The notes under the pieces are model-generated. The model was given only the letters and a program-made list of their open reading frames with translations. It ran no database searches and was not told where the DNA came from. 64,000 bases of DNA, from the IMG/VR virus record IMGVR_UViG_3300036790_000219, positions 56,058 to 120,057 of that record. One strand, written 5' to 3'. How positions within the stretch are numbered: position 1 is the stretch's first letter; each line of letters opens with the position of its first letter. This DNA is from a virus. Shown here piece after piece: positions 38,558-61,717 of this stretch. The translations under genes were made by a program, and so were the position numbers.

Positions 38558-39628
38558 CTACGCTGCTTCCAGGACTTCAACCCAGTCCTTCTTTGGCAGG
38601 TCGATCAGCCGGTCGCCCATGGACTCAAATTCGACTGCTCGGTCGTAGTTTAGAGCCTTGTGGGCTTGGGCTGTCACAGCGTTGATCACTCCCCACCGTG
38701 ATAGATCAGCGCCTTCGATCAGCGCCGTCAAGATACCACCGCGTTCGGCATCGCTAACGCCGATCTTCTGGGCCAAGACTTCCACGGCCTTGGGGACATC
38801 GCCGGTGATCTTCCCTTCCGTCATTCCCCGAGCCTTTTCGAGCCAACCCTTGAATCGGGTCTCATCAACCACCGCCCGAACCATGTCGCGGATCTTCAAG
38901 AGAATCGCGGCGTCGTCGGCTGCGCGCGTGTCATCCGCCCAGTCGATCTCACCGGTCTCCTGAATGGCTCGGCCAGCATGGTACTTGCGGTAAGCTTCCT
39001 CACCCTTCATACCGTTGAGGCAGAGCAGCCGCCACCGCAGCGCCGACACCGCAGCCGACCCACAACCAACCTCGGAGTTGGAGATCACGCCACCAGCCTG
39101 GACCACGTCGCCCCGCTTGACTTCGCCTTGAACCGTCGGTACGACGAAGTGAATGTACAGCCGCTTCTCCGTGACTTCGGAGGACACGATCTGTACACCG
39201 GGAAGGTCAAACAACACCGGCAACGCCACTTCGGCGATCTCGTTGTTGTCCACGCGCTGATAACGGTTGGAGAGGAAAGCCCGCGCCCGCCCGTGAAGAG
39301 TACGAACCATACGCTTGCGATCATCGGCTTGCAACCAGGTGTTGACGTTTTGCGCAAGCAGAGTAGGCCGTTCGACAAGCATGCGGTCGTAGTACGGCTT
39401 TGGGATCTTCAAGAAGGAACCGACTTGTTCGTGGGCGAGGGGTTGCAATGGGAACGTTCCATTGTCGGGGATGACTAGCGATGTACGAGAAGTACTCTCG
39501 CCGTCTACCGGGCGAACTGATTGGACCGTCATTTGCAACCCACGCGAATCGGCTACGAAGTCCTGCTTCGCTTTTGCGTTCGCGGTGATCTTCGCGGCAA
39601 GTTCATTGAGTGTAATGCCTTTCAACAT
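38558..39628 (-). CDS. DUF932-like protein
   Basis: MVRTL.G.ARAFLSNRY..VDN, GGVISNSEVGCGS, RLLCLNGM, SRWGVINAVT; AGGAG precedes ATG 39628. Confidence 0.8.
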   Translation of the reverse strand: MLKGITLNELAAKITANAKAKQDFVADSRGLQMTVQSVRPVDGESTSRTSLVIPDNGTFPLQPLAHEQVGSFLKIPKPYYDRMLVERPTLLAQNVNTWLQADDRKRMVRTLHGRARAFLSNRYQRVDNNEIAEVALPVLFDLPGVQIVSSEVTEKRLYIHFVVPTVQGEVKRGDVVQAGGVISNSEVGCGSAAVSALRWRLLCLNGMKGEEAYRKYHAGRAIQETGEIDWADDTRAADDAAILLKIRDMVRAVVDETRFKGWLEKARGMTEGKITGDVPKAVEVLAQKIGVSDAERGGILTALIEGADLSRWGVINAVTAQAHKALNYDRAVEFESMGDRLIDLPKKDWVEVLEAA

Positions 39629-39645
39629 TTGCTTTCTCCTGTTAT

Positions 39646-39708
39646 CGGCCTGTCTCATCAGTACAGGTAGGCCATTTCCTGCATACGGCGAACTAGCGCC
39701 GTTTCAAC
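39646..39708 (-). ncRNA. Type II hammerhead ribozyme 1
   Basis: GUU-GAAA-CGGCG(CUAGUU)CGCCG-UA^-UGCAGG(AAAUGGCCUA)CCUGUA-CUGAUGA-GAC-AGGCC. Confidence 0.8.
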
Positions 39709-39825
39709 TAACTACCCCATCTACCAGTGACAATTCTATAGAGGAGGGATCCTAAAATTGCAGTTATAATGAGGCTATTTATAGACCAAATTCCAAGAAG
39801 CCAGCTGATGTAGATGTTCATTTCT

Positions 39826-41639: not shown

Positions 41640-41962
41640 TTGAGTACCTCGTAGATTCCCCGCGACTTGCGGCGGATGAGCTTCTCGCTGAGCATCCTAG
41701 TGGTTGCAGACCCGAGGGACTTCTTAGAGAAGCCCGCCGCAGCTACAATCACCCCGGCCTCAGCGAAGGTGAAGGTCTTCTTGCGTTGGGCATGAAGGGT
41801 CTGAAGAAGAACCTCATGCGCCATACCGGTGGCTTGGACCTTTCCATTTTTCGTCTGTGCCCCCGCCACGGGTTGTACAGACAAGTTGAGTGCCAGCCCG
41901 TCTAGGCTTTTGAGTGTAGGGACTAGCTTCTTGTCATCGACAAAGAACTCTATTCGGAACAC
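41636..41962 (-). CDS. Winged-helix DNA-binding protein
   Basis: C-terminal RMLSEKLIRRKSRGIYEV; similar to 46435..46791. Confidence 0.55.
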   Translation of the reverse strand: MFRIEFFVDDKKLVPTLKSLDGLALNLSVQPVAGAQTKNGKVQATGMAHEVLLQTLHAQRKKTFTFAEAGVIVAAAGFSKKSLGSATTRMLSEKLIRRKSRGIYEVLK

Positions 41963-41989
41963 AACATGCTTTCTCCTTTTGATTAAGTG

Positions 41990-42057
41990 GGCCTGTCATC
42001 GTCAGGCGGAGCTAGGCCAAGTGCTCCACGACCGGGAACTAAAAGCCTGGTTTCGAC
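41990..42057 (-). ncRNA. Type II hammerhead ribozyme 2
   Basis: GUC-GAAA-CCAGG(CUUUUAGUU)CCCGG-UC^-GUGGAGC(ACUUGGCCUA)GCUCCGC-CUGACGA-U-GAC-AGGCC. Confidence 0.78.
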
Positions 42058-47155: not shown

Positions 47156-47407
47156 CAGTTGGCTATTCTGTGCACAAAACTGTGCTCCATTACACCGTCA
47201 CGAGAACGGTGCAACAGGCCACAGTTATTTCTTCAAGGATTCTGTCCAATAAAACCTGCTCGGACAAGAATCTGTTTGACCTGAGTTGCGCTCGTCATTG
47301 CAACAACATCCATTCGAACAGCTGCTCAATGCTGTACGCAGCTGCCATTATAACGGCCCAAGCAACTACTGTCAGCATGGCCTTTTCTGCCTTGCCTATT
47401 GGCATCA

Positions 47408-48183: not shown

Positions 48184-48413
48184 TCAGTTACCTCGCTCAA
48201 GAGACCGGTCCGTAACAACGCGGCTACAAACTCGCTCTCAGAATCTGTTGGGATATAGACACCGGAGGTTTGCCGAACACGCCGCGCCATCTGTTTCATA
48301 AAGGCTTCGGTGTTTGGCTCCGGATCGCGTGACGCGGTGCGAAGCTGACGAATCACATCGCGTGAGTTATCAGCTTCGAATACCGCGCCGTCGTCTGTCT
48401 TGTAGTGTTTCAT
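48180..48413 (-). CDS. Small protein adjacent to amidoligase
   Basis: Coupled to the amidoligase stop; FVAALL..GLL. Confidence 0.55.
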   Translation of the reverse strand: MKHYKTDDGAVFEADNSRDVIRQLRTASRDPEPNTEAFMKQMARRVRQTSGVYIPTDSESEFVAALLRTGLLSEVTE

Positions 48414-49519
48414 GGTACCACCGTACTCACCACATCAACTGTGGGTGGCGAGCCAATCTCACCGTTAGAACCCACCTGCGCTGTTCCTAACGCAACTGTC
48501 CGTTGCTGCCAGAAGGCCTTATCCATATCGTCGAGTTGTAACTTCTCGTATAACTCCACGAGGGACATGGCAACGTGCGAGGGCGCGGTAGAGCCACCGG
48601 AAGAGGCAGTGGGGTCAAGCTTAAACACTTCCCGTCCGTACCGGTGCCCCATCACGACTTCGGCCGCTCCGGCGCGGCGCAAATGTCCTTGAATGTAAGG
48701 TTGAGAGCGAATACCAAGGGCCAAGCGAATATCTTCGGAAGTAGCGCCTTCCTCACGGCTTAGTAACCGGTAGATCACTCGCCGTGCCCGGCCACTTTGC
48801 CAGTACGCTCGCTCACCGATACCGTGAGTACCACCAGCAATAGGCTGGCCCGCTTCACGCACCGCCGTTTCAACCATCTTCGAGCAGAAGATCACCCACT
48901 TGATAATCTTCTGTGCATCAACGGTCCCCGAGTGGTGTCGGAATTCAACCGTGCCGTGTTTCCAATACGCGGTAAAGTTGAGCTTGACGTAGCGGTTGTG
49001 TTCCCCACCAACAGCGCTGGCGATCTCTGTCACCGTTGTAGCTTGGTTGAGCCTCACCATGTCAGCACGGGTTGCATTCGAACCGCAGTACTGATTCGCA
49101 TTGCCGCGCCGTGACGGAGGTAGCAGTTGGTCAATGAGGCACTCGTGTTGAACATAAAGTTCAGCAAGCTTCTTCAACGCCGCCACTGACATGCGGTTCC
49201 GCGCTCCGATGTGGATGTGAAGACCACAGGAACGGTTGACCACCGCGCCGAGTTGTGTCAACACCGCGCCAACCTTCTCAATCTGCTCGAAGTTGGCTTC
49301 GCTTAGCGGCGGTGACACAAGTTCCATGCCCACACCGCCCGGTACGTGCATTGACCGTAACGAACCGTCGGTAACGATCTTCCACCGTTCCCGCTCAGCG
49401 CGGTGTGTGTACCCCGCGTTGAGGCACGACACCCCGGCCGCTTCGATCGCCGCCGCCACGCCAACATACGTTGAACCGGCAGGCGCGATGAACTCAATTT
49501 CTACCCCAAAATCAAGCAT
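48410..49519 (-). CDS. Putative amidoligase (COOH-NH2 ligase fold)
   Basis: FGVEIEF, WKIVTDGSL, ELVSPPL, SCGLHIHIG, RYVKLNF, GTVEFRHHSGT. Confidence 0.9.
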   Translation of the reverse strand: MLDFGVEIEFIAPAGSTYVGVAAAIEAAGVSCLNAGYTHRAERERWKIVTDGSLRSMHVPGGVGMELVSPPLSEANFEQIEKVGAVLTQLGAVVNRSCGLHIHIGARNRMSVAALKKLAELYVQHECLIDQLLPPSRRGNANQYCGSNATRADMVRLNQATTVTEIASAVGGEHNRYVKLNFTAYWKHGTVEFRHHSGTVDAQKIIKWVIFCSKMVETAVREAGQPIAGGTHGIGERAYWQSGRARRVIYRLLSREEGATSEDIRLALGIRSQPYIQGHLRRAGAAEVVMGHRYGREVFKLDPTASSGGSTAPSHVAMSLVELYEKLQLDDMDKAFWQQRTVALGTAQVGSNGEIGSPPTVDVVSTVVP

Positions 49520-59371: not shown

Positions 59372-61717
59372 ATGGCTGCAGACGAACTATCTCCCTCATT
59401 GCAGGAATCAATTTTAGCGGCTCTCATTTTTGATGAGAAAGCAGGCGCGGCTATCGCTATACAGGTTCTGCCCCGCCACTTTGATGAGAACTACCGTCCA
59501 ATAGCAGAACGGGTTCTGGGCTACCGTAGGAAGTACGGGCGTGGTCCTGGCCGCCAACACCTAGATGATCTCTTCGGAAAGCTTCTACACGAAGGCCGTA
59601 CGCCTAGGCTGCGTCGGGTGCTCTTTGGTCTGGCCGAATTAGCTGAGGGTCTAAACGGAGACTACGTTGTTGCCCGAACGCAGGATTTTGTCCGTGAGCA
59701 GCAACTTAAGGCGGCGCTCATTGATGCGAATTCGCGTTTTGAGCAAGGTGGTGAGGGTCTTGCGCCGGATATCGAGGGCATATTTGGCAAGGCGCTCCGC
59801 TACCGTGCCCAGACGTTGGATGCAGGGACCTTCCTAAGTGATACAACGAAGTCGCTCAAGTTTCTAGACCGTAATATTGAGGGGGGAATTTCACTTGGTA
59901 TTCGCGAGCTAGATCGAATAGGTGTCCAACTCATGCCAGGGGAACTTTTGCTTTATATCGGTGCGAAGGGCTGTTTGGTTGGAGAAACCTTAGTGGACTG
60001 CCCTAGGGATCTTAAGAGGTACCCTCGGGGAATCCCTCTTAAAAATTTGGTAGGTAAGAAGTTCCTGACCTATAGCTGGGATACTTGGCAAAACAAGTTG
60101 GTTTTGTCTAGGGTTTTAGACGTGTGGAAGACTGGTGAGAGACCCGTTTATCGGGTGGTGTTGACTGCGTACCCAACGCGAAAAGCTGGTGAATCAGGTA
60201 GACGCAATGGCGGGAAAGCGGTTAGTCCTTATTTGCCTCCCACTGAATTAATTGGAACCTACGACCATCCAGTTCTATTGTGTGATGGAACCTGGAAAAA
60301 ACTTGGAGAATTGACACCCGGATCGTCGTTGAAGTCCTTGTACCGGGGTGGATTGGGATCGCTTTCTACGGTGGGCTTACGTGTTTCTAAAGAGAAACCT
60401 ACAGTTGTTTCTCGTCATTGGTATTGGACAAGTAAGCTCAAAACGCCAATTATTTACCACAGCCTTGGGAGCGCAGTGGAAGAACACCGTTTCGTTTGTG
60501 CGGCCGTGAACGGGCCGTGTTCTGCCAAGTTTCACGCCCACCATAAAGATCGTAATAGCTACAATAACACCCCGGATAACCTTGAATGGCTGAGTGCTCC
60601 GGATCACGCTTCCCACCATCTGCGCTTGCGTAATTTAGAGGGAACTGCCGGTTGGAAAGTCTCGGGGGTACACCCTCGCGGAATGAAGGATAAAACGCAT
60701 TCTTCTAGGACTAAAAAGCGTCAACAAAAGGCGTCAAAGCAGTTGGCGGTAAGAAGACGGCGCGACGGGGCGGGTCGATTTGTTGTTGATCAGGTCAATC
60801 ACAAAGTAGTTTCCGTTGAGTATCTTGGGGTTCGGCCAGTGTACGATATGGAGGTTGAGAACACATCCAATTTTGTTGCTAACGGAGTATTTGTCCATAA
60901 TTCAGGCAAGACTTGGGCTTGTATTCATGTTGGTAAGCAAGCCCTCGTCCAACGTAAGAAGGTCCTGCATATTTCTAATGAAGTTGATGAAGACGTTATG
61001 ACGGGGCGATATTACCAAGCCTTATTTGCTGCTTCTACCCGCCCCGATAAGTATGATAAGACCTTCCTCGAATTTGATAAGTTGGGAAGGCTAGCTGGAT
61101 TTAGAACCCGTAAGGTCTCCCCAAAATGGGACTTCTCTGCGCCCTCTGCTCGGCGGGAGCTCCGTAAGAAGCTACAGCCTTGGGGCACTCGATTAGGTAG
61201 GCTTTGTGTTAAGCGGTTCCCGTCAGGGTCACTGACCATGTCACAGCTAGAAGCCTATTTGGACTTCCTGGAGAGTGAGCACAAGTTCATTCCACAGGTT
61301 CTGATTATTGACTACCCCGATTTGATGGCGCAGGATGTTAAGAACTATCGAATTAGCCTCGGCCGTACTTTTGTGGATATTCGGGGGTTGCTCGGGGAGC
61401 GCAGTATAGCGGGGTTTACGCCTACCCAGGGTAATCGGGCGTCTATAAAAGCTTCTCGTGTAAGTTCAGATATGGTGGCGGAGGATATAACAAAGGTCAA
61501 TACCGCTGATAATGTTTTGACTTATTCCCGCACTGAAGCGGAGAAGCGTCTCGGACTGGCGCGGTTACACGTGGCCCATGCTAGGAATGGTCGTGATGGT
61601 GATGTGATTATAATCACGCAAAGTTACACAACTGGGCAGTATGTTTTGGATAGTGCTCTTATGCAGCAGGCATATTGGACTCAACTCGAAGGCGAAGAAG
61701 GGGACGACGATGAGTAG
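59372..61717 (+). CDS. DnaB-like replicative helicase containing an intein
   Basis: Walker A YIGAKG|SGKT split by intein; VLHISNE; LIIDYPD; TPTQGNR; VAHARNG. Confidence 0.88.
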   Translation: MAADELSPSLQESILAALIFDEKAGAAIAIQVLPRHFDENYRPIAERVLGYRRKYGRGPGRQHLDDLFGKLLHEGRTPRLRRVLFGLAELAEGLNGDYVVARTQDFVREQQLKAALIDANSRFEQGGEGLAPDIEGIFGKALRYRAQTLDAGTFLSDTTKSLKFLDRNIEGGISLGIRELDRIGVQLMPGELLLYIGAKGCLVGETLVDCPRDLKRYPRGIPLKNLVGKKFLTYSWDTWQNKLVLSRVLDVWKTGERPVYRVVLTAYPTRKAGESGRRNGGKAVSPYLPPTELIGTYDHPVLLCDGTWKKLGELTPGSSLKSLYRGGLGSLSTVGLRVSKEKPTVVSRHWYWTSKLKTPIIYHSLGSAVEEHRFVCAAVNGPCSAKFHAHHKDRNSYNNTPDNLEWLSAPDHASHHLRLRNLEGTAGWKVSGVHPRGMKDKTHSSRTKKRQQKASKQLAVRRRRDGAGRFVVDQVNHKVVSVEYLGVRPVYDMEVENTSNFVANGVFVHNSGKTWACIHVGKQALVQRKKVLHISNEVDEDVMTGRYYQALFAASTRPDKYDKTFLEFDKLGRLAGFRTRKVSPKWDFSAPSARRELRKKLQPWGTRLGRLCVKRFPSGSLTMSQLEAYLDFLESEHKFIPQVLIIDYPDLMAQDVKNYRISLGRTFVDIRGLLGERSIAGFTPTQGNRASIKASRVSSDMVAEDITKVNTADNVLTYSRTEAEKRLGLARLHVAHARNGRDGDVIIITQSYTTGQYVLDSALMQQAYWTQLEGEEGDDDE
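59972..60901 (+). mobile_element. Intein (310 aa) with HNH endonuclease
   Basis: Starts CLVGETLV; block B LIGTYDHPVL; HNH HAHHKDRNSYNNTPDNLEWL..H..HH; ends VYDMEVENTSNFVANGVFVHN; +1 Ser. Confidence 0.92.

Follow-up and report, generated by a model that had tools for sequence, protein, structure and literature searches.

[quoted passage not shown] In the same study, clusters of hammerheads were found to flank genes in prophages, arrays of them cleaved in vitro and in E. coli, and the authors proposed a role in the processing of long phage transcripts into mRNAs that span a single gene or an operon. Three type II hammerheads located near phage-like genes were shown by cyPhyRNA-seq to cleave in cells of Desulfovibrio vulgaris (PMC8782182). 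According to a review of 2019, the purpose of bacterial hammerhead ribozymes is still undefined (PMC6765202).

The DNA analyzed here, referred to as the window, is a stretch of 64 kb that represents the right-hand part of a complete IMG/VR record of 120,057 bp with direct terminal repeats. On its minus strand, positions 39708-39646 form a 63-base pseudoknotted type II hammerhead motif, which is intergenic in this 120-kb phage and lies just 5' of a ribosome-binding site. The element is one more type II hammerhead in a class known since 2011, and its setting is the usual one; the statement of the original prediction that pseudoknotted type II hammerheads are known from bacteria and phages is correct (PMC3088659). 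With the RF02276 hammerheads of bacteria, prophages and metagenomes (PMC3088659) it shares the capped stems I and III, the short open stem II, the core, a pseudoknot (4-6 bp in this class) between loop I and the nucleotides directly 3' of stem II, and the location between phage genes, where several copies flank short gene blocks and transcript processing has been proposed. It differs from them by a score 5.7 bits under the Rfam threshold, by a G10.1·U11.1 wobble, by the triplet GUA instead of GUC, and by its origin from an uncultivated 120-kb myovirus rather than an integrase-adjacent prophage. Like the triple hammerhead flanking ardA in Agrobacterium tumefaciens and the Legionella hammerheads directly upstream of ardA (PMC3088659), it is located directly 5' of a mobile-element gene and has a partner ribozyme at a distance of a few genes, although the gene in question is DUF932-like and not ardA. 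The D. vulgaris ribozymes (PMC8782182) are likewise of type II, with hypothetical and phage-like genes nearby and with two of the ribozymes in close proximity, but these loci are chromosomal and belong to a cultivated bacterium. Cleavage was shown in vitro and in vivo (E. coli expression) for the ardA cases, and both cleavage fragments were captured from cellular RNA of D. vulgaris.

We consider it likely that the element works as a type II hammerhead in a polycistronic RNA transcribed from the minus strand of the 120-kb myovirus, and that it lies in the gap that separates a small ORF's stop codon from the ribosome-binding site belonging to a DUF932-like gene. The phage was recognized as a myovirus by PHROG matches: as far as about 35.6 kb, the plus strand encodes the major head protein, the tail sheath, the tape measure and tail proteins, and a DnaB-like helicase and a DNA helicase follow on this strand from 57 kb. 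The gene of the DnaB-like helicase (59372-61717, plus strand) shows HNH endonuclease matches in the middle of the protein (residues about 367-460), which is consistent with an intein or an inserted homing endonuclease. From about 36.3 to 50 kb, the minus strand carries tightly packed, mostly small ORFs without assigned function, and the ribozymes described below lie inside this block. An amidoligase-family gene (phrog_2443, E 3e-44) is present at 48410-49519 on the minus strand of the same block, upstream of the ribozymes. The best promoter-like site upstream on the same strand is a possible start of the polycistron (Table 1), and a consensus scan revealed no convincing terminator between this site (47375-47347) and the ribozymes. 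Since blastn of a 1.8-kb region against 50,697 phage records returned no match, no annotated close relative of this phage region was available.

The anatomy of the ribozyme was read from the sequence (Table 1). In the RNA, the elements follow each other in the order stem II 5' strand, GAAA, stem III hairpin, cleavage site, stem I hairpin, CUGAUGA and stem II 3' strand. Thus, loops cap stems I and III while stem II stays open, as in the circular permutation of type II, and the RF02276 model was matched in full (positions 1-66). Stem II comprises 3 bp (G39708-U39707-U39706 with G39654-A39653-C39652), and the pseudoknot comprises 6 bp with one U-G pair (39674-39669 with 39651-39646). By the list of core nucleotides in PMC3088659, the conserved core is complete, with C3 U4 G5 A6 N7 G8 A9, G12 A13 A14, the pair A15.1-U16.1 (A39702-U39685) and H17 (A39684). 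The pairs adjacent to the core were Watson-Crick for U1.1-A2.1 and A15.1-U16.1, and a G·U wobble (39654·39706) was found at 10.1-11.1, which is paired but is not the usual G-C. This wobble, which may slow catalysis, is the sole deviation of the window copy and had been missing from the elements listed in the original prediction. All other elements of that prediction were confirmed where it had placed them: the intact CUGAUGA and GAAA cores, stems III, I and II of 6, 6 and 3 bp, the GUA triplet with the predicted cut between 39684 and 39683, and the complementarity of UGGCCU in loop I to AGGCCG. The AGGAG predicted within about 6 nt was located 5 nt past the pseudoknot.

Table 1. Features of the two hammerhead ribozymes and their surroundings, in window positions.
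Feature	Position	Strand	Basis or remark
Hammerhead ribozyme 1, type II with pseudoknot (whole motif)	39646-39708	-	Rfam match 39644-39709
Stem II, 5' strand (GUU; 11.3-11.1 = G, U, U)	39706-39708	-	sequence read
Core G12 A13 A14 (GAA)	39703-39705	-	invariant in family
Stem III hairpin ACGGCG/CGCCGU, 6 bp including A15.1-U16.1, loop CUAGUU	39685-39702	-	covariation
Stem III strands; loop	39702-39697 / 39690-39685; 39696-39691	-	sequence read
Cleavage site, triplet GUA, predicted cut between A17 (39684) and U1.1 (39683)	39683-39684	-	H17 = A in 7/117 relatives
Stem I hairpin UGCAGG/CCUGUA, 6 bp, one G-U, 10-nt loop I AAAUGGCCUA	39662-39683	-	covariation
Stem I strands; loop I	39683-39678 / 39667-39662; 39677-39668	-	sequence read
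Core C3 U4 G5 A6 U7 G8 A9 (CUGAUGA), spurious ATG 39658 inside	39655-39661	-	sequence read
Stem II, 3' strand (10.1-10.3 = G, A, C)	39652-39654	-	G39654 in wobble with U39706
Pseudoknot strand in loop I, UGGCCU	39669-39674	-	helix 4 in covariation test
Pseudoknot strand AGGCCG, directly 3' of stem II, no linker	39646-39651	-	helix 4 in covariation test
Shine-Dalgarno AGGAG, 5 nt past pseudoknot, 7 nt before start codon	39636-39640	-	same layout in 114/124 related hammerheads
Downstream gene, DUF932-like protein, 356 aa (phrog_1362)	38558-39628	-	family matches, homologue alignment
Small ORF upstream, hydrophobic 37-aa product, start ATG 39821 with GGAGGG 7 nt before it, TAG stop 39710-39708	39708-39821	-	coding status inferred
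Hammerhead ribozyme 2, same type and pseudoknot	41990-42057	-	covariance model 60 bits; predicted cut 42030/42029, then AGGAG
Best promoter-like site upstream on the same strand, CTGACA-17-TATAAT, 11/12	47347-47375	-	consensus match only

The genes on both sides adjoin the ribozyme closely. G39708 is at the same time the last base of the TAG stop codon of the upstream ORF and the first base of stem II. The 37-aa product of this ORF matched no family in Pfam or PHROG; strongly hydrophobic and preceded by a good ribosome-binding site, it could be a small membrane peptide. As had been pointed out in the original prediction, the ATG at 39658 taken by the ORF track lies inside the catalytic core, with 39658-39656 corresponding to A6-U7-G8. 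The true start is ATG 39628, given that an identical database protein has 356 residues and that homologues of 347-356 residues align over the full length from residue 1. The downstream gene had been named DUF932, and this naming held in part. The match to Pfam DUF932 (PF06067) reached 17.4 bits (E 0.0039) against a gathering cut-off of 23, the match to phrog_1362 was clear (E 1.3e-43), and many homologues with about 60% identity bear PF06067 in precomputed annotation. Therefore, the gene is called DUF932-like here.

The full-length match to RF02276 (Hammerhead_II) scored 31.3 bits, with an E-value of 1.9e-4 when all families were searched in 551 nt and of 9.8e-6 when that family alone was searched in the whole 120-kb genome. 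Because the gathering threshold of this family is 37 bits, a default Rfam scan of the window reported nothing, and the ribozyme appeared only when E-value thresholds were applied. A strict descriptor (GAAA, CUGANGA, U16.1, H17, stems I and III of at least 4 bp and stem II of at least 2 bp) was run on 558 kb comprising the window and homologous loci. It returned 11 rows, corresponding to nine distinct hammerheads, since two rows were duplicates of the window copy; shuffled sequences yielded 0.2. Plain minimum-free-energy folding did not return the hammerhead, and the z-score was only -1.0 in a calculation that excludes pseudoknots. The nested hammerhead fold amounted to -13.4 kcal/mol and the isolated pseudoknot duplex to about -9 kcal/mol; at -18.7 kcal/mol, the best nested alternative takes up the 3' strand of stem I in a competing hairpin CCUGU/ACAGG. 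The outcome of plain folding says little because the pseudoknot cannot be modelled, and the active fold is kinetically plausible since stem I is transcribed first.

A second hammerhead of the same type and with the same pseudoknot was found in the same gene block (Table 1). The rebuilt covariance model, R2, gave 72.8 bits for the window copy and 60 bits for the copy at 42057-41990, and nothing else in the genome was matched. Hammerhead 2 had no Rfam match at E <= 0.1. The two copies are alike in type, loop I UGGCCUA, the GACAGGCC tail, the AGGAGAAAGCA ribosome-binding context, strand and gene block. They differ in stem I, which in hammerhead 2 has 7 bp and another sequence that is still paired, and in stem III, which is bulged. 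Hammerhead 2 alone has an additional U after A9, before G10.1, and 32 of 117 relatives have an insertion there, too. In addition, it has a GUC site and the canonical G-C at 10.1-11.1, whereas the window copy has GUA and G·U. The occurrence of AGGAGAAAGCA after both ribozymes was considered as a sign of a duplicated module, and this was rejected: with at most one mismatch, AGGAGAAAGCA occurred nine times on the two strands of the window versus 1.08 expected, and it therefore appears to be the usual ribosome-binding context of the phage. The AGGAG after hammerhead 2 precedes an ATG (41967) with a reading frame of just five codons, and a 108-aa ORF begins in another frame at GTG 41962. This arrangement (41960-41978, minus strand) could reflect a GTG start, a tiny leader peptide or an assembly frameshift.

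Homologues of the downstream protein were found in metagenomes in the thousands, the closest with 84% (P0002) and 68% (P0003) identity. A single-protein search of viral contigs yielded two distant loci only, both without ribozymes, and alignment-based searches were needed for more. From metagenome and viral contigs, 142 loci encoding a homologous protein were taken. Since MAFFT misaligned stem III of the ribozymes, a covariance model was seeded from the window copy and the copy of equal length in locus L041 and was then rebuilt from 13 hits. Of 102 distinct upstream regions, six (L007, L038, L041, L053, L116 and L142) had a hammerhead immediately before the homologous gene, and the proteins encoded there were 30-63% identical to that of the window. 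The copies in L041 and L142 scored 46.7 and 45.2 bits, respectively, i.e., above the Rfam threshold. Other copies were located just after the homologous gene (L084, L105) or elsewhere in the loci. No hammerhead was found at the homologous gene in five loci of bacterial genomes (Rhodopseudomonas, Duganella, Pseudoduganella, a Rhodomicrobiaceae MAG and a Spirochaetales MAG). The occurrence of homologues in the genomes of Rhodopseudomonas faecalis, Pseudoduganella and Duganella vulcania (L255, L257 and L258) may be taken as a hint of proteobacterial hosts for this gene family.

A pattern for the subtype (loop UGGCC, core, AGGCC tail) matched 107 IMG/VR stretches; covariance-model matches in 80 loci from the pattern and in the window gave a set of 117 hammerheads. 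The possibility that this subtype is specially tied to DUF932-like genes was rejected, as no downstream ORF in the 80 pattern-derived viral loci was DUF932-like. The downstream genes of related hammerheads were diverse and mostly small; therefore, the link to the DUF932-like gene is recurrent and not specific. No paper that mentions both DUF932 and hammerhead turned up in a full-text literature search.

Covariation was determined in two sets, using alignments fitted to the model, which somewhat favours the structure. In 20 sequences from the homologous loci, 92.3% of the cells were paired, as compared to 63.1% in shuffles and at most 51.5% with slid partners, and 105 cells were changed on both sides. 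In the 117 sequences, 96.3% of the cells were paired versus 68.7% in shuffles, with changes on both sides in all four helices. The pseudoknot helix was paired to 90.1% in the latter set and showed changes on both sides at all six pairs; here, one copy per pattern locus had been chosen by the subtype pattern, in which part of the pseudoknot is fixed, while the extra copies in those loci had not been so chosen. In either set, 0 of 500 shuffles reached the observed pairing. The core positions were essentially invariant across the 117 relatives; G·U at 10.1/11.1 was rare (4/117), and A17, i.e., the GUA triplet, was a minority form (7/117). Thus, anatomy, Rfam match, homologous ribozymes at the same position and covariation of four helices agree with the original identification as a pseudoknotted type II hammerhead.

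The gene layout around these ribozymes was very regular. Among 135 hammerheads (loci L007-L227 and the window), 124 had an ORF and a Shine-Dalgarno-like motif close downstream, with the start codon 10-29 nt past the pseudoknot in 114 of these. Relative to the base with which stem II begins, the upstream stop codon ended at -4 to +1 nt in 86 of 120 cases and exactly on that base in 33, including the window copy; often it was a TAG whose G is base 11.3. Since the stop abuts stem II and the start lies just past the pseudoknot, the ribozyme fills the intergenic gap. At least two same-strand copies were present in 28 of 67 loci, with a median spacing of 583 nt. In L187 (3598-9070, minus strand), 12 hammerheads occurred within 5.5 kb. 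Such same-strand arrays of up to 12 hammerheads, 284-825 nt apart and with a ribozyme between nearly every small gene, were also seen in L148, L176, L201 and L207.

Alternative explanations were weighed against a functional ribozyme. A chance likeness to the hammerhead consensus in an ordinary intergenic region is extremely improbable: the empty default Rfam scan would fit it, as would the weak RF02276 matches (E up to 10) that also occurred in 11 of 14 control genomes, but the E-value per genome, the ratio of real to shuffled descriptor hits, the second copy in the same operon and the homologues at the same position elsewhere with their compensatory changes speak against it. On the conservation data, this explanation appears effectively refuted. 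The copy might instead be a decaying one that, owing to the wobble, the weak 3-bp stem II and the GUA triplet, cleaves too slowly and persists as a neutral intergenic spacer. This we regard as unlikely. It would agree with the Rfam score under the threshold, the rarity of both G·U at 10.1/11.1 and A17 among the relatives, and the CCUGU/ACAGG hairpin that brings the nested minimum free energy under that of the hammerhead fold. However, NUH sites, GUA included, are cleavable by an established hammerhead rule. GUA is among the sites allowed by the H17 criterion in PMC3088659, all catalytic nucleotides are intact, and G10.1 is kept, only its partner being changed to a base that still pairs. Moreover, the same G·U arises independently in otherwise perfect copies (e.g., L216), the pseudoknot has its full length of 6 bp, and the stem lengths match those of the copy in L041, which exceeds the Rfam threshold.

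It is less probable still that the element matters mainly as an RNA fold or as a cassette junction at the DNA level rather than by cleavage, acting as a 5' stabilizer, a translational gate or a gene-shuffling junction. As a translational gate, it would involve ribosomes on the upstream stop and the downstream ribosome-binding site competing with stem II and the pseudoknot. The overlap of the upstream stop with stem II and the ribosome-binding site 5 nt past the pseudoknot are in line with this explanation, as are the same-strand arrays between small genes on other viral contigs and the diversity of the downstream genes. On the other hand, near-invariance of exactly the catalytic nucleotides is predicted by selection for cleavage and is needless for a mere fold. 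Since the stems vary among copies, the common DNA identity is short and makes a poor substrate for recombination, and genome compaction in phages alone can explain the tight spacing of stop and ribosome-binding site. A broader proposal, which we hold with little confidence, retains cleavage and regards the hammerhead as one unit of a general phage module of stop codon, ribozyme and ribosome-binding site, in which cleavage is set by translation and the modules move with gene cassettes. A ribosome terminating on the upstream ORF would melt stems II and III, and 30S loading on the downstream site would compete with the pseudoknot.

For the functional hammerhead, which is the preferred reading, the most likely role, which is the standard one and was also proposed in the original prediction, would be self-processing of a polycistronic phage mRNA, giving a DUF932-like mRNA with a 5'-OH end. 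We infer cleavage itself, transcription of the block as one polycistron, early timing and a benefit for stability; early timing is suggested by the position of the small minus-strand genes between the structural and the replication modules. During transcription, stems III and I would fold as hairpins, the 3-bp stem II would close the three-way junction, and the tail after stem II would pair with loop I (UGGCCU/AGGCCG), thereby holding stems I and II parallel. The core would then cut after A39684. The upstream product is predicted to terminate with the stem III hairpin and to carry a 2',3'-cyclic phosphate at that end; the downstream product would have a 5'-OH and the stem I hairpin at its head, and its first nucleotide would lie 43 nt ahead of AGGAG. 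Since the two products would be joined by the 3-bp stem II only, they should separate, and from the type II topology each would carry a terminal hairpin. Terminal hairpins of this kind shield bacterial mRNAs from exonucleases and from 5'-end-dependent decay. Together with hammerhead 2, which lies 2.3 kb upstream, the ribozyme would split the operon, giving individual mRNAs, each with a stability and translation of its own, and an RNA of 2,346 nt (42029-39684) with seven small ORFs would be released. Perreault et al. detected no circular RNA in the cases that they studied.

As a single element, the ribozyme is of little importance on its own. Both ribozymes of this phage fall under the threshold of Rfam, by which real copies are thus missed. 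The link of a hammerhead with the start of the DUF932-like gene, which is widespread in phages and plasmids and has no assigned function, is recurrent but sporadic (about 6% of loci). The survey of about 130 viral hammerheads revealed a very regular layout, with the upstream stop adjacent to stem II and the start codon shortly after the pseudoknot. If the proposed gating were true, translation would set cleavage and hence the fate of the mRNA of each small accessory gene, and travel of the cassettes would yield arrays of up to a dozen ribozymes. Phage operons with a ribozyme between every gene would be good material to test the effect of cleavage on mRNA stability or translation.
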